NCBI GenBank assembly: GCA_045613785.1
Contig: JAZLBQ010000024.1
Coordinates: forward strand, 1-64,000
Source: Candidatus Enterousia sp.
GTDB lineage: Bacteria > Pseudomonadota > Alphaproteobacteria > Rs-D84
DNA: 64,000 bases
Direction: 5' to 3'
Shown: positions 9,878 through 61,474 of the stretch, piece by piece
Layout: every line of letters starts with the position of its first letter
Numbering within the stretch: the stretch's first letter is position 1
Translations under genes and position numbers: made by a program
Notes under the pieces: generated by a model
The model's input: only the letters and a program-made list of their open reading frames with translations
The model's database searches: none
What the model was told of the DNA's origin: nothing

Positions 9878-10726
9878 TTATTTGTTTGATAATGGGTGAT
9901 GGTTTATTGTTTCTTGCAATTTTTCAGGATTTACGTGTGTGTAAATCTGGGTGGTGGAAATGTCTTCGTGACCCAACATTGTTTGAATTGCACGAAGGTT
10001 TGCACCGCCAGCCAATAGGTGGGACGCAAACGAATGACGCAAAACGTGCGGACTGACCCGGTCGGGGTCAATGCCAGAAAGTAATGCACATTTTTTTAAT
10101 ATCTTGAAAAAGCCGTCACGGGTTATATGACCAGATTTGCCCCCAGATGGAAATACGTATTTGGATTCATTGTCGCCACGCATTTTTAGCCATTTGTTTA
10201 GGGCATATATTGCTGTGTCGTGCATCGGAACTAGGCGTTCTTTGGCACCTTTGCCGTGGATTAGTAATTTGTCGCCAAGTATTCCAGTCATTGGTAATTC
10301 GCATAATTCAGATACACGAAGCCCAGATGCGTAAAGCAGTTCAATCATTGCACGAAGGCGGGTCGAATTCTTTATGTCGCCAGCACTGGATATCAATAAT
10401 TCTATTTCGGAAACAGATAAAAATTTTGGCAGTGTCCGATTGCGTTTGGGTAATTCCAGGTTTGATGCCGGGTTGGTGGTGATTATCTTTTCTAGCATCA
10501 AGAACTTATAAAATCCACGCAGGGCAGATGCCTTGCGGGCAATTGATGATGGCTTGTCCGGCAGGCTAGATAGATAATTTTGTATCGCAGCAGAATCTGC
10601 AGATAACAGACCTTGTTCAATTGTGTTGTCAGCCAGACGTAGGTCTGATTCATAACTGGCCAAGGTTTTTTCACTGCGGCCTTTTTCAGCAGAAAGGGCT
10701 TCTAAGAATATATCAATGTAATTCAT
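9878..10726 (-). CDS. xerD: Site-specific tyrosine recombinase XerD
   Basis: LYASGLRVSE, GKGAKERLVP, SPHVLRHSFASHLL..GANLR.IQ.MLGH.DISTTQIYTH. Confidence 0.9.
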   Translation of the reverse strand: MNYIDIFLEALSAEKGRSEKTLASYESDLRLADNTIEQGLLSADSAAIQNYLSSLPDKPSSIARKASALRGFYKFLMLEKIITTNPASNLELPKRNRTLPKFLSVSEIELLISSAGDIKNSTRLRAMIELLYASGLRVSELCELPMTGILGDKLLIHGKGAKERLVPMHDTAIYALNKWLKMRGDNESKYVFPSGGKSGHITRDGFFKILKKCALLSGIDPDRVSPHVLRHSFASHLLAGGANLRAIQTMLGHEDISTTQIYTHVNPEKLQETINHHPLSNK

Positions 10727-24544: not shown

Positions 24545-26443
24545 ATGAAATTTTTTAAGCGATTTTTGCTGTTCGTTTTTTGTTTCTTGCCAGCGGTTGC
24601 AGGGGCAGATGTTGCAACTACTGCGGGCAGTAATTTAACAGCCTGGAACGGTAATGCCGGGGCAACAAATAATAATAATTGGAACCAAATGATGAACAGT
24701 CGAACCCAGGCAACAGGTGCGGTTGGTGCAGGGGCAACGGCTGATTTTGGAAACTGTAATTCTTTGATTTTGCGTTGTGCACAGCCAAAGTGTTCGGGAT
24801 GTAATACAATGGAAATTGCACGCTCAATCGTTGCAGGGTGTGTCAATAGTAATGATGTCTGTAAAAAATATGGTGATGATTTAGTAGAATTTATTTCTGC
24901 ACAAATGGTGTCTAATGCAACTAGCAAGGCACAACAGGCAGAAATCGCAGCTCAGCAGCAGGCGGCCAGTGTGGCTGCTGCACAAAATAGTGCACAGTTG
25001 CAACAGATGCAGGCTCAAATGCAACAGATGCAATATGATATTCAACAACAAAATGCACAGCAGTTGGCACAAATGCAGGTCGCTTTGGACGAACAAAAGG
25101 CAATGACAGCAGCGGCAATGGAAAAGCAGGCAGAATCACAGTCTGTGTCAAATTCGGCAGTTGCATCAAATAATACGACATTGACTGATGAACAAGTGGC
25201 AGCTGCACAGCAGGGTGTTGCAGCAGATATTCTGGCACGTCAGCAGATTTCTGGACAGATTATGTCCAAGATTGAGTCAGCAGAAGTTGCGTTGAAATCA
25301 TTAAAGGCAACAATGAATAATGCTTTTGAATATGCTGGCTGTGATATGTCAGGGAATAATTGTGTTGGACCAAAACGTGTTCAGGTGTTCAAGACCAAGG
25401 CTTTGCAGTTCTTTGAACCATATAATGATGTGTTGGACGAATTGTATGATGCTTTGATTATTGCACAGGCGGTTGGTGTTGATATCACAGATATTTATAT
25501 GATGTTAAATGGTTCTTGTAATGTGTGGGGGGAATATCTGTGTTCTGATACTGCACGTGAAGTATATAATAGTGATAATTGTCAAAATGGTCGCTCGGTA
25601 AAATCGGGAAATACAAATGGTGGGGCAGAATGTTATGATGGTCAGGTTATCCCAGCCGAAGATAGTCCTGCTTGTGTTCTGCAACGGACATTAAAAGACC
25701 AAGAAGAGGTGCAAAGAAATTGGCTGTATGCAGAAACAGGGGATCGTGATGATATGATTCGTGTTGGCTGTGCATCGGCGGCACTGGATTCGTCTGTGTT
25801 TTTCAGAAATCGTAAAAAGCAGGCGACAATTGATATCGAAATATTGGAACGGATTATTGAACAAGATGCACCTGCAATATTTGGTGGTAATCGTTTGGCG
25901 GCAGCAACAAAACCAGACCCAGATGGGGTAAAGTATTGTGCTGTAACATCAACGGGATATCAGGAACTGCAAAAGGCTGCTGCAACAAAAACTTTACCAA
26001 AGAAGGTCTGTGTGGCAGATTCGAAACTAGCGGGGTTGTGGACATCAGGTGGTGCTGTTTCGGCGGATGTTTCTGATGCAGTTCAGGTATTGGCGGCACA
26101 TGCCAAATGCCAGTCCAAGAAAGGGCCAGATTGGGTGCGGTGTTTGTGTGAAAGTTCATCAGATAACGAAGCTTATTGGGATAGACAAAGTAATAAATGT
26201 TTATGCGTGTCCAAAGATAAGAGTTTTGATACGGACTCAGCCAGGTGCATGAAGTCTGGTGAAACGGTGGATAATAATACAAAGTCGTATAGTTTGTATA
26301 TGTCGTGTGTGACGACGGGGGGAACACCAAATTTTGGTGTCAATTATGGTGATGTTTGTGTGTGTGATAAAACATCATATAATCCCGTGACTAAGAAATG
26401 TGTTGATGGTTTTATGGGAAATAAGATAGTTATAGATAAATAG
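24545..26443 (+). CDS. Secreted Cys-rich protein with a Gln-rich coiled-coil segment, 632 aa
   Basis: Signal peptide (…AGA/DV); Q/A-rich stretch; many paired Cys; no family recognised. Confidence 0.8.
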   Translation: MKFFKRFLLFVFCFLPAVAGADVATTAGSNLTAWNGNAGATNNNNWNQMMNSRTQATGAVGAGATADFGNCNSLILRCAQPKCSGCNTMEIARSIVAGCVNSNDVCKKYGDDLVEFISAQMVSNATSKAQQAEIAAQQQAASVAAAQNSAQLQQMQAQMQQMQYDIQQQNAQQLAQMQVALDEQKAMTAAAMEKQAESQSVSNSAVASNNTTLTDEQVAAAQQGVAADILARQQISGQIMSKIESAEVALKSLKATMNNAFEYAGCDMSGNNCVGPKRVQVFKTKALQFFEPYNDVLDELYDALIIAQAVGVDITDIYMMLNGSCNVWGEYLCSDTAREVYNSDNCQNGRSVKSGNTNGGAECYDGQVIPAEDSPACVLQRTLKDQEEVQRNWLYAETGDRDDMIRVGCASAALDSSVFFRNRKKQATIDIEILERIIEQDAPAIFGGNRLAAATKPDPDGVKYCAVTSTGYQELQKAAATKTLPKKVCVADSKLAGLWTSGGAVSADVSDAVQVLAAHAKCQSKKGPDWVRCLCESSSDNEAYWDRQSNKCLCVSKDKSFDTDSARCMKSGETVDNNTKSYSLYMSCVTTGGTPNFGVNYGDVCVCDKTSYNPVTKKCVDGFMGNKIVIDK

Positions 26444-26444
26444 A

Positions 26445-27188
26445 ATGAAAAGAATTAAATGTATTTTTGCTGTTGTATTGTTCTGCCTGGGGCTGGGTGG
26501 GGTGGTTTTGCCTGCTGGGGCGGCGGATAATGGATGTGATAAAGAACAAAATGATAAAATTGTGCCGGAACTGGCACTGTGTTCAACACACGCATATAAT
26601 ATTGGGGCAACACGAAACCCGTCAGGGGCAGATAAACAGTTGATGAAGGATGTTGTGGCGTTGAAAACAACTGTTATGGCACAACAGATGAATAAACAAT
26701 ATGAATACTTAGAAGCGATGATTCGCAGATTCAAGATTCAATTAGAAAAAGCTGTTTTAACAACAGGGCTGGAAGCCAAGGGTGCCACCAGCACTAGTTC
26801 TAGCAGTTCAGGAAATTCTGGTTTTAAGTCAAATGATCGTAATATCTTTATGGCAGGGGTCAAAAACTGTAATAATGAATTGTTGCCAACCGATGTTATG
26901 ACGTGTTTGAATGCGAATATGAATACTATATCAAATATGTCGAGTAATGCAGATAATATTAGTTTGGAAATACGCAAGCAGTTGGCAAACGATTTTAATT
27001 TGTTGGATACAACTACTGTAAAAGATCAGGTGTGTGTTACAAAATCAAAAACAAATGGCAAAGACTGCTTAAAATATAATGAAATTTCCAAGAAAAAGGA
27101 TTTTCAGGAATGTTTTGATAATATGCGTTCGTGTCTGCGAAACAAGAGCTATGCGTTGAGTCAGGCCGCACAGCAAAAAAAACAATAA
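26445..27188 (+). CDS. Secreted helical Cys-containing hypothetical protein, 247 aa
   Basis: Signal peptide; starts 1 nt after the previous stop. Confidence 0.8.
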   Translation: MKRIKCIFAVVLFCLGLGGVVLPAGAADNGCDKEQNDKIVPELALCSTHAYNIGATRNPSGADKQLMKDVVALKTTVMAQQMNKQYEYLEAMIRRFKIQLEKAVLTTGLEAKGATSTSSSSSGNSGFKSNDRNIFMAGVKNCNNELLPTDVMTCLNANMNTISNMSSNADNISLEIRKQLANDFNLLDTTTVKDQVCVTKSKTNGKDCLKYNEISKKKDFQECFDNMRSCLRNKSYALSQAAQQKKQ

Positions 27189-27277
27189 TTATTTGCTCCC
27201 ACGATTGTGGGGGATTTTTTTATTCTTTTTTATGATGAATATTTATGATATAATTTCACCAAAAGGAGTTGTTTATT

Positions 27278-28570
27278 ATGAAAAAATTAGGTTCTGTTTT
27301 TGTTGGTTTGTTGACGGCCTTGGCTGTGGTAAATGCAGATGCTGCAACAAATTGGGGAACACGTGCAGGTTCAAGTGCAGATTTGTCAGGAACACCCGCA
27401 ACACGAACACGTGAAAATGTAAATTATGAAAAATACCAAACACGGACTTTGACCAAGACATATGAATCAAAAGATGCAGGGGATTTGTATTATTCAAAAC
27501 CTGCAAGTCGTAGTGCTTTGTATAAACAATATGAAGGGGCAGGGTCAGCATCCGCAAAGGCTTCTAAGACAACAACACGCACAACACGTTCGGAAAAAGT
27601 TGTCAATAAGATGAAACGTAAATATTTCTTGGCTCATCCGTTCTATCAGCCGTTGGAAGGTATGTTTGGTGCACATACAGATTTGTCTTATAACACCAAT
27701 TCATATGATTTTACAATCAATCAGACTGTTCCGGTATTTGATTCTTTGGGCGGAACAGCAGATTTGTATTGGAATGGCCATGGCGGTAAATGGAATATGT
27801 CTGGATTTTCAATCAAAGAAGATTTCAGTTATGGTATCACAGACCGTATCGCTTTGATGGCAATGTTGCAGTATGATTCAAATGAATACAAATTTGAATG
27901 GGATGATGAATCACCAGATGACAAAATGGACGACAGTGGTTTGAATCTGATTGGGTTCGGTGGACAGTGGCGTTTCGTTGATAACGAAAAGTGGATTGGA
28001 ACAGCCAGTGCTTATTTCCAGCACCAGAAAGATATTGCGAATAACTTTGTTCTGGAATTAAAAGGTGGATACAAAGTTTCGTCTTCAACAATATACGGAC
28101 TGGCACGTGGTTGGTATGTTGATTTGGAAGGTAATTCATATGGTAATGGTATAAGTGGAATAAATCCGCTGGGAACAGAATCAACAATGTATTTGCCTTA
28201 TCAGGTTGGTGATGGCAGCGTTATGTATCTGGAAGCAGGGTTGGGTGTGTTTAGTGTCTTGAACGAAGATTGGACATTGAATGTAGAGGCAATCCTTGGC
28301 AACTATGATTGGCACAACCAGGGCAGTATCAAGGGGGCAATCGGTTGGCAGCCAAATGATTGGTTCGCATTAAACCTGTATGCAAAAATGGTTGTTTTTG
28401 ACAGTGCAGATGGAAAAGATTTGGGATTCTATTGGAAAGAATCAGGTGCATATTATGAAGGTGAAGGCGGAACAGCTGTTGAAATGGCTGACTTTACAAA
28501 ACTGGGAACTGTTGAAGTTGATAACTATGCAGAAACTAAGATTGGCTTGCAGGTTATGTTCCAGTTCTAG
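27278..28570 (+). CDS. Putative outer-membrane beta-barrel protein
   Basis: Signal peptide, amphipathic aromatic-rich strands, C-terminal 'LQVMFQF'; SD aaggag. Confidence 0.75.
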   Translation: MKKLGSVFVGLLTALAVVNADAATNWGTRAGSSADLSGTPATRTRENVNYEKYQTRTLTKTYESKDAGDLYYSKPASRSALYKQYEGAGSASAKASKTTTRTTRSEKVVNKMKRKYFLAHPFYQPLEGMFGAHTDLSYNTNSYDFTINQTVPVFDSLGGTADLYWNGHGGKWNMSGFSIKEDFSYGITDRIALMAMLQYDSNEYKFEWDDESPDDKMDDSGLNLIGFGGQWRFVDNEKWIGTASAYFQHQKDIANNFVLELKGGYKVSSSTIYGLARGWYVDLEGNSYGNGISGINPLGTESTMYLPYQVGDGSVMYLEAGLGVFSVLNEDWTLNVEAILGNYDWHNQGSIKGAIGWQPNDWFALNLYAKMVVFDSADGKDLGFYWKESGAYYEGEGGTAVEMADFTKLGTVEVDNYAETKIGLQVMFQF

Positions 28571-28589
28571 TCGATTAAAGACAAAAATA

Positions 28590-28621
28590 ATATTGCCCCA
28601 GGTTTAGGCTTGGGGCAATAT
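28590..28621 (+). terminator. Long hairpin (terminator or stabiliser)
   Basis: atattgcccca...tggggcaatat; weak T tail. Confidence 0.5.
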
Positions 28622-28644
28622 CCTTAGACGGAGAGAGGGAGTTT

Positions 28645-29382
28645 ATGAAAAAATTTTTTTCAACTGTTTTTTTGGGACTTGCAGTTTTGATGCCGACTTT
28701 TGTTCGGGCAAATGATATATCGGTTGATACGTCTGACCCGTTGTTCTTGCAGGCTCAGGAAGAGATATTGACCAAAAGTTCAATCACATATTGGGATCAT
28801 ATTTTGCGTGTGGGACAATCTGCATCATATGGTATGAATGAACGATTGGCACTGGGAATCGATGTAAATTATCAGCATGATTTTAATGGTGATGAAGATG
28901 GTTTTGCGGCTGTTGATATTGGTGGGTTATACCGGTTGTCGGGGGCAGGTGATAACAGTGCAAATATAATTTCTGATGTTATTTTTGGTTTTAAGTTCGG
29001 TGGTAGTTCACAGGTCAGAACCCCGGATTATGCTGATTCTACGTATTATGCAGGATTGAGATTCGGTCGGCAATGGGCAGGTTTGACATTGGCTGCGACA
29101 ATTAAATCGACATGGGTGTTTGATGATACTCGTGGGGTGGCGTTTTTAGACTTTTCACCAGAGGCTTATTTTAGAACTTCGCCTGATTGGCGTATCGGGG
29201 CAGGCTTTACAGTGCGTAAGGCAACCCACAAAGATCAAATTGATGGAACAGATTTTGACCAGGAATGGTTGCATTTCAAAGTTGTTCGTCAATATGGACG
29301 CACGCAATACATTGGTCATGTTGACTTTGAATTCGAATCCGATGATGCCCAGATTGGGGGACGGATAAATATCTTGTTCTGA
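28645..29382 (+). CDS. Putative outer-membrane beta-barrel protein
   Basis: Signal peptide, alternating beta strands, C-terminal 'GGRINILF'. Confidence 0.7.
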   Translation: MKKFFSTVFLGLAVLMPTFVRANDISVDTSDPLFLQAQEEILTKSSITYWDHILRVGQSASYGMNERLALGIDVNYQHDFNGDEDGFAAVDIGGLYRLSGAGDNSANIISDVIFGFKFGGSSQVRTPDYADSTYYAGLRFGRQWAGLTLAATIKSTWVFDDTRGVAFLDFSPEAYFRTSPDWRIGAGFTVRKATHKDQIDGTDFDQEWLHFKVVRQYGRTQYIGHVDFEFESDDAQIGGRINILF

Positions 29383-33269: not shown

Positions 33270-35282
33270 GTGGCGGATATGAAAGTATTTGTTGATGTTC
33301 ACGATAAACGTTGGAATAAGTATAAAATTGACTTTGAAAAAATCGCTAATACGGCGGTTTCTGGCGTGCACAAGAATTCAGAGGTATCAATTGTTTTGGT
33401 CGATGATTCTGAAATTCATGAATTAAACAAGAATTATCGTGGTATGGATAAACCTACGAATGTTATCTCTTTTGAATTGGGTGATGATGTTTTGTTGGGG
33501 GATATTTATATATCTTTTGATACCGCACTGCGTGAGGCAAAAGATGAAAATATTAGCCTAGAAAATCATGTGGCTCATTTGGTTGTGCATGGGGTCTTGC
33601 ATTTGCTGGGATTTGACCACATAACTGATGATCAGGCAAATATAATGGAGATGAAGGAAATTCAAGTATTGAAAAAATTAGGAATAAAAAATCCGTATCA
33701 GGACGAAGAAGATTTTGTGTGCGATTGTGAAGAGTGTTGTCCAGGGGGACGTTTCTTGTCTTGGTTTCGGAAACTAACAGTTAAAGAAAATGGGGTGTTG
33801 CAATACGCTCTATACGCAGTGTTTGGTGGACTTGCTGCATTTGGGTTTGCTCCATTTTATCAGTGGTGGTGGACAATTGTTGGTGTGGCAGGTGCGTTTT
33901 GGTTGACTGTCAGAAATAAAAATATTGGTGGGTTCTGGCAATCGTTGATGCGGGTCGCACCCTTTGGTGCAATGTATTCAGTTGCTATGTTTTGGTGGGT
34001 TCTGAATTCTATTTATGTTGTTCCAGAATTGGCCGAGCAATTTGCAATTTGGACATTGCCTGGAATTGTTGGGTTGGCACTGGCTGGTGTCTTTATCTTT
34101 TCTTGGCCGTTTGTTGCAGTGGCACAGAAGAAATTTAGTGCAGGGGGGCGAGTGTTCTTGTTCGCCGCTGTTTGGACACTGGTTTTGTGGGGGCGTGAGT
34201 GGTTGTTTACAGGTTTCCCATGGAATCCAATTGCAAATATAACAATGCCATGGCCAATGTTTGCAAATGCAATGTCGTTGTTTGGAACTTTGGGGTTGAC
34301 CTTTGTTATTGTTGGGGCGATTGCAGTTCTGGTTGAACTTTTAAGAAACCCAAAAAGCAAAGTTTTATGGTGTGTTTTGTTTGTCTTTGCTTTGCTGTTC
34401 GGTGGTGGGCTGTTCGCTGGCTATAAAAATATGCAAGCAAGTGATGTGGGGGCAGAAAATCCTGCGGTTTTGTTTCGAATCGTTCAACCTGCACAATCGC
34501 AATCACAAAAGGCAACACATAATCGTCAAAGTGCGTTAGAGCAGGCTCAGTTTAATTTACAAAATCTGGCTAAACTAGCAATGCAACCTGGAAATCCAGA
34601 TGTTATTGTTTTTCCTGAAACAACGTATCCTTTTGTTGTTGTGGAAAATGATAATATTGAGTTAGCACGTGTTTTGCAACGGCCTGTTATTATCGGAGCG
34701 ACAAGTTTTGATGCAGGAAAAATATTTAATTCTATGTTACTGATAGAACAAAATGGAGAAATTCAAAAGATTTATAGTAAATCGCATTTAGTGCCATTTG
34801 GTGAATATAGCCCTTTGGGGATATTGCCAAGTCCTGCAAATTTAACACGTGGAAATGGCCCAGAAATTTTGTCTGTCGCAAATTTAAAATTCGCACCAGC
34901 AATTTGTTATGAGGTTATTTTTTCTGATTCGTTATTAAATAGCGATGCTGATGATGTTCAGGCAATTATAAATATAACTAATGATAATTGGTTTGGTAAG
35001 ACACCTGGAATATATCAGCACTTGGATATGGTGCGGCGTTATGCAATCGAATCGGGTATGCCAATTATTCGAGCAAACTATTCTGGAATCAGTGCATTTG
35101 TTGGGGCAGATGGAGTGGTCATATCTTCTTTGCCTGTTGGGGCGGTTGATGTCCTGGACGGATATGTGTGGGGTGGACATAAAACACCATATCGTATGAT
35201 TGGTTTGAATAAGATGATGATACTGATTTTATTGGTCGCAATGTTGGGAATTGCATGTTGTCAGAAATTTGAAAAAGACTAA
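33270..35282 (+). CDS. ybeY-lnt: Fusion: endoribonuclease YbeY and apolipoprotein N-acyltransferase Lnt
   Basis: YbeY: LN..YRG.DKPTNVISF, LGDIYIS, HLVVHGVLHLLGFDH. Lnt: TGFPWN, FPET, YSKSHLVPFGEY, ICYE, NITNDNWFG, RANYSGIS. Confidence 0.92.
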   Translation: MADMKVFVDVHDKRWNKYKIDFEKIANTAVSGVHKNSEVSIVLVDDSEIHELNKNYRGMDKPTNVISFELGDDVLLGDIYISFDTALREAKDENISLENHVAHLVVHGVLHLLGFDHITDDQANIMEMKEIQVLKKLGIKNPYQDEEDFVCDCEECCPGGRFLSWFRKLTVKENGVLQYALYAVFGGLAAFGFAPFYQWWWTIVGVAGAFWLTVRNKNIGGFWQSLMRVAPFGAMYSVAMFWWVLNSIYVVPELAEQFAIWTLPGIVGLALAGVFIFSWPFVAVAQKKFSAGGRVFLFAAVWTLVLWGREWLFTGFPWNPIANITMPWPMFANAMSLFGTLGLTFVIVGAIAVLVELLRNPKSKVLWCVLFVFALLFGGGLFAGYKNMQASDVGAENPAVLFRIVQPAQSQSQKATHNRQSALEQAQFNLQNLAKLAMQPGNPDVIVFPETTYPFVVVENDNIELARVLQRPVIIGATSFDAGKIFNSMLLIEQNGEIQKIYSKSHLVPFGEYSPLGILPSPANLTRGNGPEILSVANLKFAPAICYEVIFSDSLLNSDADDVQAIINITNDNWFGKTPGIYQHLDMVRRYAIESGMPIIRANYSGISAFVGADGVVISSLPVGAVDVLDGYVWGGHKTPYRMIGLNKMMILILLVAMLGIACCQKFEKD

Positions 35283-35283
35283 G

Positions 35284-35307
35284 AAAACCGCCGTATAGGC
35301 GGTTTTT
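35284..35307. terminator. Bidirectional terminator (identical copy at 56632)
   Basis: aaaaccgcc-gtata-ggcggttttt. Confidence 0.85.
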
Positions 35308-35524
35308 AATTTTGTGAAATTCGTAATATCATTTGATTTAGAACCCATACCCGAACTGCTGATGATAGGTTCGTGTTTGCAGAGCGGTTTTCGTCGATTT
35401 CATTTATAATCGTTGCGACTGGTTTGCCACTGCGAATTGCCAGGGCGTTTAATGCATCAATAAATTCGGGTTCAAGTGTGATACTGGTTTGGTGGCCAGC
35501 AAGTGATACAGATAACTTCTTCAT
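35306..35524 (-). CDS. Ribbon-helix-helix (RHH_4-like) protein
   Basis: SVSLAGHQTSITLEPEF...L...ID......NLSSAVRVWVL. Confidence 0.88.
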   Translation of the reverse strand: MKKLSVSLAGHQTSITLEPEFIDALNALAIRSGKPVATIINEIDENRSANTNLSSAVRVWVLNQMILRISQN

Positions 35525-35531
35525 TTTTTAT

Positions 35532-35966
35532 TTACATTTTTCCTGCAATTAAACAATCTGATAATGCTTTATACGGGTCATCATAGCGACGTAATGGGGA
35601 TAATGTCAAGTTGTCGAACATATAGCAAACCCCAAATGCATCAAATCCAAACCAGAATAAATCATTACGACCAAATATTGTTTTGCCCATCGTTTGCGGT
35701 ATGTTTGTTAGGTCTTGGTTAAATTCAAGAATTGTTGGTGCAGGGAAATGTAATCCTTGGGCGAATTCTGATGGTCCAAATATATAACCGTTGCCCAGAT
35801 TTATCCCACCGGTATGTGTGTAAAGCTCAATCATAAATGATGGCAACATTGCACGACGGTGTTGTTGCAATGATGTGTTTATCAGTGAAACCTGACTCAT
35901 TGGGGCAGGTGGTGTTAGAACTGCACCACGGGACTGGATAAATGATAAAAATTCAGAGCATGTCAT
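35532..35966 (-). CDS. SUKH/SMI1-KNR4-like (immunity-family) protein
   Basis: 'LPSFMIELY..TGG.....GYIFG', 'ILEFN', 'IFGRND' pattern. Confidence 0.6.
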   Translation of the reverse strand: MTCSEFLSFIQSRGAVLTPPAPMSQVSLINTSLQQHRRAMLPSFMIELYTHTGGINLGNGYIFGPSEFAQGLHFPAPTILEFNQDLTNIPQTMGKTIFGRNDLFWFGFDAFGVCYMFDNLTLSPLRRYDDPYKALSDCLIAGKM

Positions 35967-35980
35967 ACTTGTCCCTTTGG

Positions 35981-36481
35981 TTATTCACGGCCGCCTGCAA
36001 GTTGAGCACTCATTTGTGCAAGACGGTCTTCGGTTGCGTTGCCACCATCGCCACCACCAGCAGTGTGTGCAGGTAGGTATATCTTTTTCGCTGGGTTGGG
36101 TAACCATATCGTTTGAGCCCCAGTTTGTCCAATAATAAAACGATCAAGGTTATTGCTGTGCGGAAATGTCCAGCACATAAATAAATTGTCTAGTTCAAGT
36201 TTGCCGCCAAACGCCAGTGGAATTCGAAAACGAAAAGATATGTTCTGGGGAATGCTTTGCCCCATAATCAGACCCATAAATTCGTCCTGGGTTAGATTCA
36301 TAAATGCTAATGTTTCAACCGAATCGGTTAGCGTTGTTATGAATTCGTGGACAAGTTTTTTATACTGGTTAAACCAATCCGCAGGAATGTTTGATGGTGT
36401 GGGGTGTATCTCCATCAGGGGCATATCTGACATGCCCATATCTGATAATATCTTTTCTGCGGAGCCTTGTGTCAATTGCAT
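35981..36481 (-). CDS. Degenerate HNH toxin-like domain protein
   Basis: 'G.SIPQNISFRFRIPLAFGGKLELDNLFMC..FPH' follows the G..P.gy.vHH..PL..GGtN...NL.l....H pattern with HH lost. Confidence 0.55.
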   Translation of the reverse strand: MQLTQGSAEKILSDMGMSDMPLMEIHPTPSNIPADWFNQYKKLVHEFITTLTDSVETLAFMNLTQDEFMGLIMGQSIPQNISFRFRIPLAFGGKLELDNLFMCWTFPHSNNLDRFIIGQTGAQTIWLPNPAKKIYLPAHTAGGGDGGNATEDRLAQMSAQLAGGRE

Positions 36482-36494
36482 CTTTTATCCTGTG

Positions 36495-37448
36495 TTAAAT
36501 TTTCGAAATGTAATCAATTACTGTTGAAATATATGATGAGAACGCTTCGAAACTTTCGTCGTCTGTTATAGGTGGATTTTTATGGGATTCCATATAAGTC
36601 CTTAATTCAGACGGGGTCGCAAATGTCAATATGTTCGCAGCACCAGGTGCTGATGCGTCGGGGGCAGAAATAACAAAGCCGTGAATGTTGATGACAACAT
36701 CGTCCAATGTGTCGTTGAATATTTCTTGCATTGTATCAATGGCACTTTGAAGGGCGGTGGTTGGAACACCAACTGCACCAATCCACAAGGTTTCATTTGT
36801 GCCAATGGCAATCAGGTTTGTTTGAAGATTGCCGATTCGGGCATTTTCTTTTGTTGTATAGCCAGAGTTTTTAAATATTTCCGGAAGTTCTGGCCAGTTT
36901 TGTTGCGAAGGTTGTGGTATTGAATTTGTTGTCGTGGGGACTGTAAAACTTTGTGTTTGTGAAGCACTGGGTAATGATGGAGTAATGCTGATGTTCAAGC
37001 GTGGTGGACGTGATAGACCTATTTCAGAAGTTTGAGGTGCTGTTGTTACAGGGGCGGTCGTCGCAGTCGGTGTTTGTTGAACAACAGGTTGTGGTGCAGG
37101 TGTTGCAGGTGTCGTTGCGTTTTGTGGCACTGCAGTTGTAGGCACTGGGGCAGGCGTTTGTTTTACAATGGCTTGTGATGATTTTTCAGGTTGGGTAATT
37201 TTTATTTTCTTGCGTGGTCGCAATAAGAAATGTAATCCCAGAACCATTATTATCACGGTTAGAACCGTTGAAATATAAAAATCGGGCTTTACCGGTTGTT
37301 GCGAGGCCTGCATATAAGCCAAATGCTGCCAGTGGGCAGATGAAAATATGTTAAAGCCGAATTTTATGTTAAACCAAAATGATGCACCAAGTATCGATAT
37401 GCTTAGCCATAAAAGTGATAGTAAAATGTTGTCTAGTTTATTTCTCAT
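36495..37448 (-). CDS. Two-TM protein with Pro/Thr-rich linker and C-terminal restriction-endonuclease-like fold (inactive-looking)
   Basis: Two TMs; P/T/Q linker; 'EIFKNSGY......IG...TNLIAIG....LWIG'. Confidence 0.55.
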   Translation of the reverse strand: MRNKLDNILLSLLWLSISILGASFWFNIKFGFNIFSSAHWQHLAYMQASQQPVKPDFYISTVLTVIIMVLGLHFLLRPRKKIKITQPEKSSQAIVKQTPAPVPTTAVPQNATTPATPAPQPVVQQTPTATTAPVTTAPQTSEIGLSRPPRLNISITPSLPSASQTQSFTVPTTTNSIPQPSQQNWPELPEIFKNSGYTTKENARIGNLQTNLIAIGTNETLWIGAVGVPTTALQSAIDTMQEIFNDTLDDVVINIHGFVISAPDASAPGAANILTFATPSELRTYMESHKNPPITDDESFEAFSSYISTVIDYISKI

Positions 37449-37492
37449 TATGTTTTTAATTGTAGCATATTTGTGATAAAGTAAAAAGCATT

Positions 37493-38164
37493 ATGATTGA
37501 TAAAAAATATTTAAATAATTTTTCTGAATTTGCTGCACTGTGGTGTCGGTCTGATATGGAAAATGCAGAATTGGCATTGGTGGCTGATCAAATTAGTGCA
37601 AATAATGTTCCGCTGGTGTCTTTGCTGCCAGAGCAGGTCGGCGTAATTTGGCCGTGGTTAGAGAATATGGATGTTAAAATTATGCCCAGATTCTTTATCC
37701 AGGATAAAAAAATTACAGAAAAAAATATTTCTGAATTGACTATTCAAATCAATAATGTCTTGAAACGGGGGGCAAGCGGTGCACAGGTGTTCTTGCCGTA
37801 TAAATTGTTGGCGGACTTGGTCGAGCAGACATATGTTGTCCGTGATGATTTGTTCTTTGACAAGGACTTGGCAATAGGAATAAATCTGTATGATGTTGCA
37901 CCACTGGATTGGTCGGAATTATATCAACAACTGCGAAAAATAAATGCTTCGTCTTTGATTCTGGTGCTGGGGGCAAAGGATGCACAAAAAAATGACTTTG
38001 TTGGCAGGATTTTCGCAATGCTGGATTTATGGGAACAGGATAATAAATTCGATTTGCAATTTGTGTTTGGTGGTAATTTATACTGTATGGAATCAACATT
38101 GCGATTGGTGCAAAAAATGCGACCAGATTTAATCGGTAGAATACGTTTCTTTGTAAACGCCTAG
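37493..38164 (+). CDS. Hypothetical protein, possibly a degenerate DeoC/aldolase-like TIM barrel
   Basis: 'VSLLPEQV....WLENMDVKI' and 'KRGASGAQVFL' recall DeoC; no Schiff-base Lys motif. Confidence 0.55.
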   Translation: MIDKKYLNNFSEFAALWCRSDMENAELALVADQISANNVPLVSLLPEQVGVIWPWLENMDVKIMPRFFIQDKKITEKNISELTIQINNVLKRGASGAQVFLPYKLLADLVEQTYVVRDDLFFDKDLAIGINLYDVAPLDWSELYQQLRKINASSLILVLGAKDAQKNDFVGRIFAMLDLWEQDNKFDLQFVFGGNLYCMESTLRLVQKMRPDLIGRIRFFVNA

Positions 38165-59258: not shown

Positions 59259-59816
59259 ATGAAAAACTTTACAAAAAAAATCTTTATGTTTGCGTCAATG
59301 TTAGGGGCAGCAGTTTTGTTGTCTGGTTGTATGATGGAATGTCCAAATAAAAAAATGGCTCATCATAAAAAGGTTCAACGTGCACATCCAGTAGAAATAG
59401 TTGAGGAAACTGAAGCAATCGTCGTTTATCAGACATACGAAAATGCAGATATAAATAGCGTTTATGCAAAAATGTATACTCATAGTAGCCATGGCGGCGA
59501 ATCTAAAATGGGACATATCAAGTTCAAAGATACTGATAATGGGCTGAAAATGATGGTTGATTTGAAAGATATGCGACCAGGTGTTCAATATTATGTTAAA
59601 CTGTATCAATGTGCATCGTGCCACAATGATGCAAAGTGTTGCAATGAAGCAAAACGCTTTGATATGAATTTGCCAATGTTACAGACTGGAAAAAGTGGTC
59701 GGTTGAATCAGACTTATATGATTCAGGGTATGAGTGCCGCACAATTAAATGGTGCAAATATCTATCTGGAACGTGATGGTGGATATAAAGCAGGTTGGGG
59801 TAAGTTGGAAAAATAA
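59259..59816 (+). CDS. Lipoprotein with a Cu/Zn-SOD-like fold lacking metal ligands
   Basis: Lipobox LSGC; 'GHIKF.DT..GL...VDL..M.PG', 'NLPML....SG', 'L.GANIYL'. Confidence 0.6.
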   Translation: MKNFTKKIFMFASMLGAAVLLSGCMMECPNKKMAHHKKVQRAHPVEIVEETEAIVVYQTYENADINSVYAKMYTHSSHGGESKMGHIKFKDTDNGLKMMVDLKDMRPGVQYYVKLYQCASCHNDAKCCNEAKRFDMNLPMLQTGKSGRLNQTYMIQGMSAAQLNGANIYLERDGGYKAGWGKLEK

Positions 59817-59932
59817 TCTTTTGAACTTATTTATAACTGCTGTTGATAAATCGCCCCAGAAAGTTGGGGCGTTTTTCTTTTAGTTCTTTAAGAATATATT
59901 CAGGTGTGTTAGTATGTCGCCAGAGAAAAAGA

Positions 59933-61474
59933 ATGAGATTATTTTGCTTTTTTTGGGCGGTATGTTTTATGACTGTTGATGCCTCTTTTGGGGCAACAGT
60001 TGTGTCTGACGTTTATGGCGGACCAATAAGTTGTCGGACTGATTTTATTATTATGGAAAATGTTTCTTTTGGGCCGGATTCAGTGATGATTCAAGGGTCT
60101 GTGCAGATTGAAAATCGTGGTATGTTTCACAGCGATATTGTTGTGTGTGATGGGTGTAATTTATATGTGAGAAATAGTGGCGATTTTACTGCAAAAGTCC
60201 AGTTGGGAAACAATGCACAGGTAATCGCAGTTGTTGCAGAGCAGGCGGATATTTCAAACCTGAATATCGATTCGGAATATAGTGTTTTGGTACGTGGTGC
60301 AGATGGTATTAGTTTGGGCGATGTTGTTGAAAATTTTTCTGAGGCAAATCGAATTATATTAAATGACAGTTTTGTAGATATTACAGGGCTAAATTTAGAA
60401 TCTGATATTAGTATAGAATTAGACGGAAATGTTAGTTTTTATCTGGATGATTTAACAGAGTTTTATGCTGCTGGTATTCTTGAAAATCTTTCTGGTTGTG
60501 GAACAGTTACTTTCCTTGATAATTCAACAGATTCAATGTTTGTTGATGTCGGTATTGTTAAGGATGGTGTAATAGAGGTGCATCGTGAACGTGAGAAAAA
60601 TTATGTTCGTGTGCTGGGAAATGATAAACGTGCGATGCTGCTAAATCGATTGAGGACAAGTAAAGCAAATGATAATTTGTTTGCTGCCTTGGATACGGCA
60701 CAGGATAGGGCAGGTCTGGAAAATATAATGCGGCATTCTGTGCATTTTAATTCAGATGTGTTGGTTTCTGCTGGTCGAATGTTAAATATGGGGTTGATGA
60801 TAAATAATTCAATGACGAATAAACTTGATATTCGTCCTTTTGGTTTGTTCGCAGATGATTTTATTGCTTATGGGCTGGATGTTGGAGCTGTTTATAATTT
60901 TGATAGCAGGTTAAAGATAGACGGACGTATTCGCACTGGTGAATTAAAATATAGGTCTGAAATTGATGCGTTTAATGCTTGGTTCAATGGTATTAGGATT
61001 GCGGCAGAATATCAGTTCCCAAAAGATGATTTTATCAATATAAGTTTTCAGGGAATAAAAATTAAAACCGATATAAACGAAGTCTTGTATGATAATAAAT
61101 TTATTTCGAATCCAGATGTGTTGTCAGGTGTTGCGACATTTGATTATGGGTGGAATTTAAATTTAAGCGATTCGATTTTTGTTAGACCGCAGGTTGGTAT
61201 CACAGCGTATTTAGACAAGGTTGCAGATGAAATAGAATTTAATTGGTCTGGTCGTGCAGGGGCTGAGTTTGGATATAGTTTTGAATCACTGGGGTTGCGG
61301 TATGACTATGGTATTTTGACCGAAGTTGGAACAGAAAATCAATATAGTGTTTTAGGTCGTATGTCTGTATGGTCTGAATTTGATATGGCAGGTGGCCAAA
61401 TAAGCATAGGTGCATTACAGACAGGGAATGTAAAGGCCTGGCAATTATCAGTTGGGGTAAATATCGGATTTTGA
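59933..61474 (+). CDS. Autotransporter-like outer-membrane protein
   Basis: Signal peptide, beta-rich passenger-like N-half, helical linker, C-terminal barrel ending 'GVNIGF'. Confidence 0.6.
   Translation: MRLFCFFWAVCFMTVDASFGATVVSDVYGGPISCRTDFIIMENVSFGPDSVMIQGSVQIENRGMFHSDIVVCDGCNLYVRNSGDFTAKVQLGNNAQVIAVVAEQADISNLNIDSEYSVLVRGADGISLGDVVENFSEANRIILNDSFVDITGLNLESDISIELDGNVSFYLDDLTEFYAAGILENLSGCGTVTFLDNSTDSMFVDVGIVKDGVIEVHREREKNYVRVLGNDKRAMLLNRLRTSKANDNLFAALDTAQDRAGLENIMRHSVHFNSDVLVSAGRMLNMGLMINNSMTNKLDIRPFGLFADDFIAYGLDVGAVYNFDSRLKIDGRIRTGELKYRSEIDAFNAWFNGIRIAAEYQFPKDDFINISFQGIKIKTDINEVLYDNKFISNPDVLSGVATFDYGWNLNLSDSIFVRPQVGITAYLDKVADEIEFNWSGRAGAEFGYSFESLGLRYDYGILTEVGTENQYSVLGRMSVWSEFDMAGGQISIGALQTGNVKAWQLSVGVNIGF

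Follow-up and report, generated by a model that had tools for sequence, protein, structure and literature searches.

A conserved four-gene operon of Candidatus Enterousia that probably carries a domesticated toxin-immunity pair

Results

Four tightly packed genes lie at a conserved housekeeping locus

We analyzed a window of 64,000 nucleotides (contig JAZLBQ010000024.1, positions 1 to 64,000 of the forward strand) from Candidatus Enterousia. This alphaproteobacterium lives in the gut, and its genome measures about 0.75-1.0 Mb, the size given for Enterousia in PMC12306168. The locus of interest comprises four open reading frames (ORFs), here called g1 to g4, and two flanking features:

37449-37492, minus strand: candidate promoter and RHH operator, in the 44 nt that separate g1 from the divergent gene at 37493-38164
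36495-37448, minus strand: g1, ORF of 317 amino acids
35981-36481, minus strand: g2, ORF of 166 amino acids
35532-35966, minus strand: g3, ORF of 144 amino acids
35306-35524, minus strand: g4, ORF of 72 amino acids
35283-35307, both strands: bidirectional terminator, a GC-rich hairpin (stem of 10 pairs on the plus strand and 9 pairs on the minus strand) with T runs in both directions

The ORF coordinates leave 13, 14, and 7 nt between successive genes, all on the minus strand, as the first-pass annotation of this DNA had described. That annotation had also reported no mobile-element context, which agrees with a Pfam scan of the 43 other large ORFs of the window. These encode UvrB, FtsQ, FtsK, MutL, SecD/F, RuvC, GltX, ThrRS, RecJ, TatC, and other housekeeping proteins, with no transposase, phage, or type VI secretion genes among them, and the sole integrase-type match is a XerC/D-like recombinase (9878-10726). 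The GC content of the operon (0.41-0.42) likewise falls inside the range of the window (0.35-0.45). The terminator, located by a terminator scan, is common to g4 and the convergent ybeY-lnt gene and marks the 3' end of the operon.

The same four genes occur in the same order and on the same strand in all 80 related loci, each from a species-level genome, and in 80 of 80 genomes they occupy one conserved housekeeping locus. All sequences compared are from uncultured genomes. Gaps of at most 30 nt separate g1 from g2 in 79, g2 from g3 in 79, and g3 from g4 in 80 of the 80 loci. The first two genes overlap in 68 of them, and the median gap between g2 and g3 is 14.5 nt. Median dN/dS was 0.158 for g1, 0.068 for g2 (25 pairs), 0.092 for g3 (33 pairs), and 0.296 for g4. 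With 57-98% identity across loci, g2 shows the strongest conservation in the operon.

Phylogenetic trees of g2 and g3 shared 26 and 33 of 68 splits, respectively, with the tree of ybeY-lnt. As a reference, the ybeY-lnt tree and that of the divergent gene at 37493-38164, both non-operon neighbors, had 28 splits in common, and shuffling the labels gave at most 2. Synteny and dN/dS across relatives were a check that the first-pass annotation had proposed. The four genes are strictly co-conserved, descend vertically, and evolve under purifying selection. The patchy spread, variable context, and fast-evolving pair of a mobile conflict module were not found here.

g2 is a degenerate homologue of the YhhZ HNH toxin domain

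None of g1, g2, and g3 matched a Pfam family above threshold. From profile comparisons, we describe g2 as a 166-aa standalone HNH/His-Me-finger domain of the YhhZ type that appears catalytically degenerate. A profile of 52 g2 family sequences aligned with E. coli YhhZ by hhalign with a probability of 95.7% (E 8.6e-9, 123 columns), pairing g2 residues 17-139 with residues 257-385 of YhhZ, its C-terminal toxin domain. Ten scaffold residues are common to the two proteins (G74, P78, N80, G92, G93, N99, P107, F115, Q119, and P128). The catalytic signature differs. We assigned the roles of the g2 positions by presumed analogy with the catalytic residues of colicin E9. In the window g2, the HH dyad is replaced by Arg-Phe and the Asn of GGxN by Leu. 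Across the family, position 85, which corresponds to the second His of the dyad in YhhZ, holds F, L, M, C, W, or N in 221 sequences and a gap in one; His occurs in 0 of 222. Position 84 is Arg in 207 of 222 (His in 4), position 86 is Arg in 210 of 222, and the GGxN position 95 retains Asn in a single sequence of the 222. The HNH pattern with these replacements, which the first-pass annotation had read in g2, reflects true homology.

A loss of catalysis in g2 is well supported by this alignment. Because R84 and R86 are nearly invariant, the substituted site is fixed rather than decaying. The fixed Arg pair could bind phosphate or sustain other chemistry, and the loss of His is no strict proof of full inactivity. 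The charge of the domain also differs from that of YhhZ: g2 has a pI of 5.1 (family median 5.36, n=134) versus 9.45 for the YhhZ toxin domain. At its C-terminus, g2 carries a family-specific, Gly-rich tail with a conserved GGNAT.DR motif at 146-153.

The AF2 model of g2 (pLDDT 86.7, pTM 0.78) places beta strands at 81-85 and 100-104 and a helix at 105-117. The first-pass annotation had proposed profile and fold searches for g2, and the two differed in outcome: profile homology to YhhZ was clear, whereas Foldseek with the model returned no match at E<=1e-3 in PDB or BFVD. The best PDB match, 4uhp_G (E 0.35, probability 0.47), and the best viral match (E 0.25) were non-significant. The top weak matches were pyocin and colicin DNases and other HNH domains.

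An exhaustive HMMER search of 1.84 billion proteins returned 42 representatives of the g2 family, the longest of 321 aa, and no Pfam domain was found in the 14 representatives scanned. With 166 aa and no other domain, g2 itself is not fused to a delivery domain (Hcp, RHS, LXG, or CdiA). These results confirm the earlier statement that no delivery domain is attached.

As a separate observation, the immunity-protein domain T6SS_Tdi1_C of Pfam was weakly matched by 4 of 52 g2 relatives at residues 74-100 (best E 8.6e-4).

g3 is related to the YrhA immunity-type family

In NCBIfam, the sole family matched by more than one of 38 g3 family members was NF038335 (YrhA family), the one model on which the g3-YrhA link is based; 34 of the 38 matched it at E<=1 (best E 6.4e-10). 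The window g3 scored 16.4 bits (E 0.0064) against a curated cut-off of 55 bits. Of four other relatives, one gave no match at E<=0.1, and the remaining three reached 24.6, 23.8, and 20.1 bits. As all copies scored individually fall below 55 bits, g3 is a relative of the YrhA family and not a member by the NCBI rule. E. coli YrhA is a true member (E 3.5e-23, 82.1 bits). Alignment of the g3 profile with single YrhA sequences by hhalign gave nothing (probabilities of 0.17% and 0.35%).

The first-pass annotation had called g3 SUKH/SMI1-KNR4-like. Its immunity-type character is consistent with the YrhA family match; the SUKH label itself is weak, with matches below the gathering score. The window g3 has no Pfam match at E<=1, and in its family SMI1_KNR4 was matched by 5 of 38 members (best E 0.022) and SUKH_6 by 4 of 38 (best E 0.055). 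The E. coli YrhA fragment had no Pfam match either. Median pI was 7.74 across the g3 family (n=120), compared with 4.52 for this fragment.

g2 and g3 are predicted to form a heterodimer

Complex prediction for g2 with g3 gave a score of 0.89, against 0.01 for the best of three controls. In a benchmark, which is a rough guide here because the alignments were self-built, 58 of 80 solved complexes scored this high, compared with 2 of 110 mismatched pairs. Runs agreed in at least 97% of contacts, with a partner pLDDT of at least 90. The predicted g2 interface (77-84, 88, 90-91, 104-107, 109-110, 113-114, and 116-118) covers the beta-beta-alpha core including R84, so that g3 is modelled on the former active-site face. 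This placement points to a stable, non-catalytic heterodimer of g2 and g3 as the most likely form of the pair. A retained binding complex, as the first-pass annotation had suggested, has support at the level of this model.

Conservation did not single out the interface. Interface residues of g2 scored 0.760 versus 0.733 for the rest, equaled by 1456 of 5000 random sets, and those of g3 scored 0.639 versus 0.702. The distance correlation between g2 and g3, computed on non-independent pairs, was 0.75 raw and 0.50 residual, the highest for g2. Sequence searches returned no solved structure for either YrhA or the toxin domain of YhhZ.

g1 is a membrane protein with a possible nuclease-like domain

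The two transmembrane helices and Pro/Thr linker that had been read from the g1 sequence recur in its AF2 model and composition. The protein is predicted to begin with an N-in/C-in hairpin (helices 2-30 and 55-76, with a short helix 37-48 between them). The linker that follows (about 80-184) is disordered and rich in Thr, Pro, and Gln (19% Thr, 18% Pro), with a conserved RPPRLN motif. The C-terminal domain (185-317) is acidic (pI 4.2) and folded, with secondary structure elements in the order alpha-beta-beta-beta-alpha-beta. Mean pLDDT was 79.6, with 84-97 in blocks of the C-terminal domain and 46-65 in the linker. Charges after the second transmembrane helix (+7/-1) suggest, by the positive-inside rule, that the C-terminus is cytoplasmic.

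Foldseek against PDB with the g1 model returned no match at E<=1e-3 (best E about 0.012-0.013). The weak matches were mostly PD-(D/E)xK proteins, including EndoMS (5gke, E 0.013, probability 0.75), Can1 (6sce, probability 0.94), and the R2 endonuclease (8gh6, probability 0.80), and an Atlas lead pointed to NERD (11% of members of one cluster, score 0.88). As neither g1 nor g2 has a significant Foldseek match, their fold labels rest on the kinds of weak matches obtained.

The catalytic D...(D/E)xK motif is missing from strands 2 and 3. Position 211, that of the canonical Asp, is Ala in 34, Ser in 21, and Asn in 8 of 80, and Asp is absent among the six commonest residues. The ExK positions 222 and 224 are Trp in 69 and Gly in 79 of 80, while K200 and E219 are nearly invariant (79 of 80 for both). 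The earlier description of a PD-(D/E)xK-like domain without its D and ExK holds for the missing motif, and the likeness itself is seen as weak fold matches. Homologues of g1 were found solely in this lineage.

g4 and the region upstream of g1 point to a possible RHH operator

That g4 encodes an RHH DNA-binding protein, as first annotated, was confirmed by a match to Pfam RHH_4 (PF13467; E 9.8e-20, 70.8 bits versus a cut-off of 25, model positions 2-66 of 67). Its pI is 8.3, and it has a weak PDB sequence match (3kk4, E 0.014). A search of a limited literature collection by accession returned no described function for RHH_4. We consider g4 a likely DNA-binding regulator of the operon.

Upstream of g1, we read by eye an extended -10-like element, TGnTACAAT, whose hexamer (37459-37464) stops 10 nt short of the g1 start codon; it was absent from the output of a consensus promoter scan. 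A TATCA-N6-TGATA inverted repeat, also read by eye, lies at 37463-37478, with TGCTA as its right arm in the window. The conserved block could be anchored in 75 of 78 loci, and the inverted repeat is perfect in 55 and present in a relaxed form in 73 of the 78. A script located a -10-like hexamer in 73 loci, in which 8-10 nt lie between its end and the g1 ATG. The inverted repeat is a putative RHH operator.

Comparison with known systems

The closest counterpart is the YhhZ-YrhA pair of E. coli. In YhhZ, the toxin domain is fused to Hcp (Pfam T6SS_HCP E 1.6e-11, NCBIfam TssD E 3.8e-34), and yrhA shares 4 nt with the end of yhhZ. PMC5714182 files YhhZ as His-Me finger group 32, and the review PMC6730261 reports Hcp-ET1, related to YhhZ, to be an HNH DNase that is delivered by the type VI secretion system and has an immunity protein. 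As g2 is homologous to the YhhZ toxin domain and the downstream g3 matches the YrhA family, in the same tight adjacency, both partners and their order are conserved. YhhZ has the Hcp delivery domain, the HH dyad, and the GGxN Asn, which are all lost in g2. Its toxin domain is basic, whereas g2 is acidic and has an added, conserved C-terminal tail. The Enterousia operon carries two extra genes, g1 and g4, and is present in 80 of 80 genomes, in contrast to yhhZ-yrhA, which occurs in 3807 of 5426 complete E. coli genomes.

The DNases of colicins E9 and E7 and pyocins AP41 and S2 were the best structural neighbors of g2 (4uhp_G, 2vln_B, 1bxi_B, and 4qko_B), though no match in structure or sequence reached significance. 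Like g2, they have a small partner encoded directly downstream; unlike them, g2 lacks the catalytic and metal-binding His. Their Im-type immunity proteins are unrelated to g3, and colicin immunity proteins bind beside, not on, the active site.

Inactive His-Me fingers kept for binding or signaling include the C-terminal GHH domain of teneurin, Smad MH1, and the nuclease-like domain of ENPP/autotaxin, as described in PMC3482391 and PMC5714182. The nuclease-like domains of NPP3 and autotaxin were among the weak Foldseek matches of g2. These domains are eukaryotic and have no immunity partner, whereas g2 is bacterial and its partner gene is co-conserved. The element order of the g1 C-terminal domain is compatible with the core of PD-(D/E)xK proteins (EndoMS/NucS, Can1, R2, and NERD-type), which also dominate its weak, non-significant matches, and the domain differs from these nucleases in its missing D/ExK, its acidic pI, and its membrane tether. 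With an RHH_4 protein and an inverted repeat in the promoter, the operon also resembles RHH-autoregulated operons; here, g4 is the last gene.

Discussion

We favor the interpretation that the operon holds a domesticated effector-immunity pair, consisting of a YhhZ-type HNH protein and a YrhA-type partner, and consider this the more probable origin and state of the locus. Descent from an HNH toxin-immunity pair appears well supported by the YhhZ and YrhA matches. The first-pass annotation had likewise posited an ancestral toxin-immunity pair with its catalysis lost, and these two matches and the absence of His in 222 of 222 family members bear this out.

The strongest competing explanation is an active toxin-antitoxin or addiction module, in which g2 would be toxic in a non-canonical way (e.g., nucleic-acid binding or cleavage by the Arg pair), g3 would neutralize it, and the RHH protein would autoregulate the operon as in type II systems. 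The order of toxin then immunity gene and its tight spacing are kept, g3 is modelled on the former active-site face, and R84 and R86 are strongly fixed. The RHH protein g4 and the inverted repeat in the promoter also recall toxin-antitoxin autoregulation. However, the general-base position is without His in every family member, the charge of g2 is acidic rather than basic, and a PADLOC scan of five proteins gave no match at E<0.01. Addiction modules are normally patchy and mobile, whereas this operon sits at one housekeeping locus in all 80 genomes, with g2 and g3 trees that agree with that of a neighboring housekeeping gene as well as the trees of two non-operon neighbors agree with each other, and with dN/dS of 0.07-0.09. 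We regard an active module as improbable.

Slightly less probable still is that g3 is an orphan immunity gene against YhhZ-type effectors injected by gut neighbors, with g2 a decayed remnant or a decoy. The family match of g3 is to the immunity-position gene of a type VI effector, and the organism inhabits animal guts, an environment rich in such effectors; yhhZ-yrhA is found in 3807 of 5426 E. coli genomes. Against this, g2 is the most conserved gene of the operon (57-98% identity, dN/dS 0.068), with a fixed site and a conserved new tail, which is not how a decaying remnant behaves. The g3 family is near-neutral, in contrast to the acidic YrhA fragment, and the locus is fixed, whereas orphan immunity islands are usually variable and mobile. 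Finally, convergent or too-remote likeness in a lineage-specific housekeeping operon of unknown proteins would fit the sub-threshold Pfam results for g1, g2, and g3, the empty Foldseek searches at E<=1e-3, and the negative single-sequence hhalign of g3, but is very improbable given the 123-column g2-YhhZ match (E 8.6e-9) with its ten common scaffold residues and the independent match of the adjacent g3 to the family of the yhhZ-adjacent gene (34 of 38, best E 6.4e-10), as two neighbors matching two neighbors in the same order is improbable by chance.

Under the favored domestication of an effector-immunity pair, an ancestor would have acquired a YhhZ-type HNH DNase toxin domain together with a downstream YrhA-type immunity gene. 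g2 would then have lost its delivery domain and exchanged its His dyad for an Arg-hydrophobic-Arg site. It would also have lost the basic charge typical of DNases and gained its conserved Gly-rich C-terminal tail. In the present operon, g1 to g4 would be co-transcribed from the short, highly conserved promoter region, with the transcript ending at the common terminator. g1 would tether its acidic, nuclease-like domain to the membrane by a long and flexible linker in the cytoplasm, and the g2-g3 heterodimer may serve to bind other proteins. Its contact with the cytoplasmic domain of g1 may run through the tail of g2 or through faces that the dimer leaves exposed. In this way the complex may link the membrane protein to the RHH transcription factor, as the first-pass annotation had proposed. 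g4 would bind the promoter inverted repeat and set expression of the operon, and perhaps also that of the divergent neighbor. Any contact of the pair with g1 or g4, the operator function, and the role in the cell are inferences. Retention of the operon in every related species compared suggests that a former weapon of bacteria now serves as a housekeeping complex.

A more speculative extension, which we hold to be unlikely, concerns regulation. An ancestor of Rs-D84/Enterousia would have captured a type VI-style pair, stripped it of delivery and catalysis, and rebuilt it as an indispensable cytoplasmic switch. In such a switch, g3 and the membrane-tethered dead nuclease g1 would compete for, or assemble on, g2 and so control the RHH factor.

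Effector-immunity pairs are normally studied as fast-moving weapons. Animals provide known examples of inactive HNH domains with a new use, among them teneurins and Smad. Full-text searches of a limited collection found no paper on a bacterial disarmed toxin and its immunity partner both fixed as a core operon. If the switch existed, it would be without bacterial precedent, a weapon and its antidote converted into core regulatory machinery in which the antidote survives as the binding partner. The operon is kept in genomes of less than 1 Mb, where little dispensable DNA survives, and its retention there points to a genuine function in the cell. The reuse of a toxin-immunity interface in ordinary cell biology is also a tractable question here. 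The four proteins are of small size and could be produced in laboratory strains.

A core operon of four genes among housekeeping genes

The operon ends at a hairpin that faces the convergent ybeY-lnt gene, and its elements are arranged as follows:

36495-37448, minus strand: g1, ORF of 317 aa (membrane protein)
35981-36481, minus strand: g2, ORF of 166 aa (HNH-like, degenerate toxin domain)
35532-35966, minus strand: g3, ORF of 144 aa (immunity-type protein)
35306-35524, minus strand: g4, ORF of 72 aa (RHH_4 protein)
35283-35307, both strands: hairpin with T runs on both strands, at the operon end facing ybeY-lnt

Gaps of 13, 14 and 7 nt separate the ORFs, confirming the tight packing described in the first-pass annotation, and the GC content (0.41-0.42) is inside the range of the window. 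Pfam profiling of the 43 other large ORFs of the window revealed housekeeping surroundings (UvrB, FtsQ, FtsK, MutL, SecD/F, RuvC, TrmB, GltX, ThrRS, RecJ, TatC and GatB) and no transposase, phage or type VI secretion genes, in agreement with the earlier claim that mobile-element context is absent. PADLOC matched no defence family, and the sole Rfam match in the window was a tRNA outside the operon.

A genome scan recovered 100 stretches with a gene for a g2 relative; 80 loci were kept for analysis. The closest (g2 98% identical) is from a Candidatus Enterousia genome, and the remaining loci are from metagenome-assembled genomes of gut Alphaproteobacteria. According to PMC12306168, Enterousia belongs to order Rs-D84, and its genomes measure about 0.75-1.0 Mb. 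The comparison of synteny and dN/dS across relatives, which the first-pass annotation had proposed, came out in favour of a conserved unit. All four genes are present in identical order and strand in 80/80 loci, with gaps of 30 nt or less in 79/80 (g1-g2), 79/80 (g2-g3) and 80/80 (g3-g4); the g1 stop overlaps the g2 start in 68/80. Median dN/dS (Nei-Gojobori, only pairs with dS 0.05 to 1) was 0.158 for g1 (14 pairs), 0.068 for g2 (25), 0.092 for g3 (33) and 0.296 for g4 (231). We compared FastTree phylogenies over the 71 taxa common to the trees (68 splits). The ybeY-lnt tree has 26/68 splits in common with g2, 33/68 with g3 and 28/68 with the divergent gene upstream of g1, and the g2 and g3 trees agree in 31/68; with shuffled labels, trees have 0.14-0.17 splits in common on average and never more than 2. 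The operon is a vertically inherited core operon. A mobile conflict island is ruled out by the synteny, low dN/dS, tree congruence and housekeeping surroundings, and tblastn of g2 against plasmids returned no match.

g2 resembles the HNH domain of YhhZ without its catalytic residues

Pfam and NCBIfam assigned no family to g2 of the window. A word-based search returned 431 relatives, and the 120 matches listed are all without names and 62-96% identical. Exhaustive HMMER searching of 1.84 billion representatives found 42 at E≤1e-3 (the longest 321 aa), and no Pfam domain was detected in the 14 of these that were scanned. The route to a named relative was through the YrhA match of g3 (below), yhhZ being the gene upstream of yrhA in E. 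coli. YhhZ is annotated as a putative endonuclease and contains an Hcp domain and a weak HNH match; a passage in PMC5714182 places it in His-Me finger group 32. The related Hcp-ET1 is described in the review PMC6730261 as a T6SS-delivered HNH DNase characterised along with an immunity protein.

Profile alignment (hhalign) of 52 g2 sequences against YhhZ paired g2 17-139 with YhhZ 257-385 over 123 columns (probability 95.7%, E 8.6e-9). The family and YhhZ have G74, P78, N80, G92, G93, N99, P107, F115, Q119 and P128 in common (g2 numbering). The HH dyad of YhhZ lies opposite g2 R84-F85, and the Asn of its GGTN opposite L95. Among 222 sequences, none has His at position 85, which is F in 162, L in 37 and M in 19, with C, W, N and a gap once each. 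Arg occupies position 84 in 207 sequences (His in 4) and position 86 in 210, and Asn is found at position 95 in one. The first-pass reading, an HNH motif with HH replaced by RF and the GGxN Asn lost, was right in detail. Loss of the canonical catalytic site of g2 is well supported by these alignments. An active module with unusual chemistry would be less likely, as none of the 222 sequences carries the His at position 85.

 A tail missing from YhhZ comprises G146, G147, N148, A149, T150, D152 and R153, each present in 204-219/222 sequences. An orphan immunity gene carrying along a remnant also seems less likely: against it stand the median dN/dS of g2 (0.068, 25 pairs), R84 and R86 (207/222 and 210/222) and these tail residues.

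The AF2 model of g2 (pLDDT 86.7, pTM 0.78) has strands at 81-85 and 100-104, followed by a helix at 105-117. Neither structure library gave a Foldseek match at E≤1e-3. Its weak matches were the DNases of pyocin AP41, colicin E9/E7 and pyocin S2, Cas8-HNH, the ZRANB3 HNH and phage HNH endonucleases, and the model is consistent with an HNH-type fold. The protein Atlas, taken as a lead only, gave HNH-type families (0.77-0.79). Searching PDB sequences with the g2 or the g3 profile yielded nothing credible; the best match was a designed repeat protein (E 0.0052). Weak matches to Pfam T6SS_Tdi1_C, a domain found at the C-terminus of a type VI immunity protein, were seen in 4/52 relatives (including P0034, P0044 and P0110; best E 8.6e-4, below the cut-off) over g2 residues 74-100, the hairpin of the HNH-like core. 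The Rehh toxin, as described in a preprint, belongs to a different family.

Three distant relatives (P0158, P0161 and P0162) are 224-321 aa long, with N-terminal extensions; in alignments read by eye, the first dyad position is His and the second Leu or Met. In an IQ-TREE phylogeny rooted on YhhZ, P0158 and P0162 (paired, support 99) and P0161 are basal, and the Enterousia-type clade has support 97. The root is a single outgroup sequence, so we draw no order of events from this tree.

g3 is related to the YrhA immunity-position family

The single match of the window g3 was NCBIfam NF038335, the YrhA family (E 0.0064). Scanned singly, 34/38 g3 relatives match this family (best E 6.4e-10), and no other family was matched by more than one of the 38. 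In E. coli K-12, the first YrhA fragment scores as a genuine member of the family (E 3.5e-23, 82 bits vs a cut-off of 55), and yrhA begins 4 nt inside the end of yhhZ. By hhalign, the g3 profile did not match individual YrhA sequences (probability 0.17% and 0.35%). On the family matches, g3 is thus distantly related to the YrhA immunity-position family. The first-pass annotation had called g3 SUKH/SMI1-KNR4-like; the immunity-type assignment stood, but the SUKH label found weak Pfam matches (SMI1_KNR4 5/38, SUKH_6 4/38). E. coli YrhA had no Pfam match, and a literature search found no relevant paper tying YrhA to SUKH.

In the E. coli K-12 locus (L081, 7039-8310), yrhA is a pseudogene interrupted by IS1E; other E. 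coli strains carry an intact yrhA of 164 aa. The yhhZ-yrhA DNA occurs in 3807/5426 complete E. coli genomes, chromosomal in every case.

A likeness to a toxin-immunity pair by chance is the less likely reading given the profile match of g2 to YhhZ (E 8.6e-9, 123 columns) and the YrhA matches in 34/38 g3 relatives. Descent of g2-g3 from an effector-immunity pair of the YhhZ/YrhA type is well supported. Full-text literature searching found no published case of a bacterial disarmed toxin kept with its immunity partner as a core operon.

g2 and g3 are predicted to form a complex

Modelling of the HNH-like and immunity-type proteins together, a check proposed at first pass, gave a favourable result: with two family alignments, the g2-g3 complex scored 0.89 and the best control 0.01. 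The score mark was reached by 58/80 solved complexes and 2/110 mismatched pairs, counts that hold only roughly for g2-g3 because our own alignments were used. Contacts agreed by at least 97% across three runs, with partner pLDDT of at least 90. In the model, g2 contacts g3 through residues 37, 40-41, 44-45, 62, 77-84, 88, 90-91, 104-107, 109-110, 113-114, 116-118 and 120, a surface that corresponds to the former active-site face, R84 included. Sequence searches turned up no solved structure related to either partner, which makes it unlikely that the predictor reproduced a known complex of this family, although solved structures exist for other HNH-immunity complexes. The prediction supports the view that g2 and g3 still bind each other. 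Interface residues were no more conserved than residues elsewhere. The correlation of g2 and g3 distances (mirror-tree) is weakly suggestive.

The membrane protein, the RHH protein and the promoter region

The AF2 model of g1 (mean pLDDT 79.6) has two helices (2-30 and 55-76) separated by a short one, low confidence over 80-180, and a confident C-terminal domain (helix, three strands, helix, strand, strand, two helices). The linker is rich in Thr (19%), Pro (18%) and Gln (12%) and contains a conserved RPPRLN motif, matching the earlier description of a two-TM protein with a Pro/Thr linker. The segment past the second helix has 7 basic residues and 1 acidic; the linker and C-domain should therefore be cytoplasmic, and a periplasmic domain was rejected on this charge.

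The C-domain had also been described as patterned like a degenerate PD-(D/E)xK nuclease. This stood in part: the canonical ExK is absent (Trp/Gly), the canonical Asp position is Ala/Ser, and the weak Foldseek matches were mostly to PD-(D/E)xK nucleases (EndoMS, Can1 at probability 0.94, the R2 endonuclease domain and Bax1, and further OkrAI, BamHI, XisH and cap-snatching endonucleases), but nothing matched at E≤1e-3. K200 and E219 are each kept in 79/80 loci. The protein Atlas suggested NERD (0.88, a lead only), and Pfam returned scattered membrane-protein noise and nothing else for 49 relatives. For g1 of the window, neither Pfam nor NCBIfam offered an informative match. Homologues of g1 were found in this lineage only.

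The g1 C-domain has a pI of 4.2 and g2 of 5.11 (family median 5.36, n=134), versus 9.45 for YhhZ 257-392. Because both are acidic, protein-binding rather than DNA-binding roles are suggested, and DNA tethering by g1 and g2 was rejected.

The RHH DNA-binding protein recognised at first pass in g4 is a clear RHH_4 member (Pfam, E 9.8e-20); we found no paper on PF13467 in the literature searched. The 44-nt spacer between g1 and the divergent gene (37449-37492) is highly conserved, its block being anchored in 75/78 loci. Within it lies a TATCA-N6-TGATA-type inverted repeat, which 55/78 loci have in perfect form and 73/78 in relaxed form; in the window, one arm is off by one base. Read by eye, the spacer also has an extended -10-like element. 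Its hexamer ends 8-10 nt from the g1 ATG, which predicts a nearly leaderless g1 transcript. A consensus promoter scan did not list this candidate promoter.

Neighbouring genes and the wider window

The divergent gene (37493-38164, plus strand, 223 aa; 44 nt between its start codon and that of g1) matched no Pfam, NCBIfam or PADLOC family. It adjoins g1 in 77/80 loci, the three misses being contig ends, and may be regulated jointly with the operon. On the other side (33270-35282, plus strand), YbeY, an rRNA maturation RNase, and the apolipoprotein N-acyltransferase Lnt lie in a single 670-aa ORF, present in 75/80 loci. The fusion seems conserved, since tblastn matches cover about 1.9-2.0 kb in related loci. 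GltX identity across the 80 loci falls mainly into two classes (one at about 74-84%, the other at 88-96%; two loci are close to 62%), and its distances correlate poorly with those of other genes; there may be two gltX forms, or a replacement.

Several large ORFs lack a Pfam family at E≤1e-6: four in series directly 3' of ruvC (24545-29382, plus strand; 632, 247, 433 and 245 aa), one of 824 aa (722-3196, minus strand) and two of 185 and 543 aa (59259-61474, plus strand). In a 589-aa ORF (5793-7562, minus strand), an FtsA-type domain (189-320) precedes a ribulose-phosphate 3-epimerase domain (382-573); the ORF is an unusual fusion or else two genes that share one frame. GC skew is above 0 in all 1-kb windows across 1-64000, the cumulative skew climbing steadily to 14.3, and the plus strand carries most large ORFs. 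The entire window seems to belong to a single replichore, in which the operon occupies the minority strand.

A possible role for the operon

Judging from co-transcription alone, the g2-g3 pair may have g1 as its partner at the membrane and g4 as its partner on DNA. The status of the operon as a core, selected part of a reduced genome is well supported.
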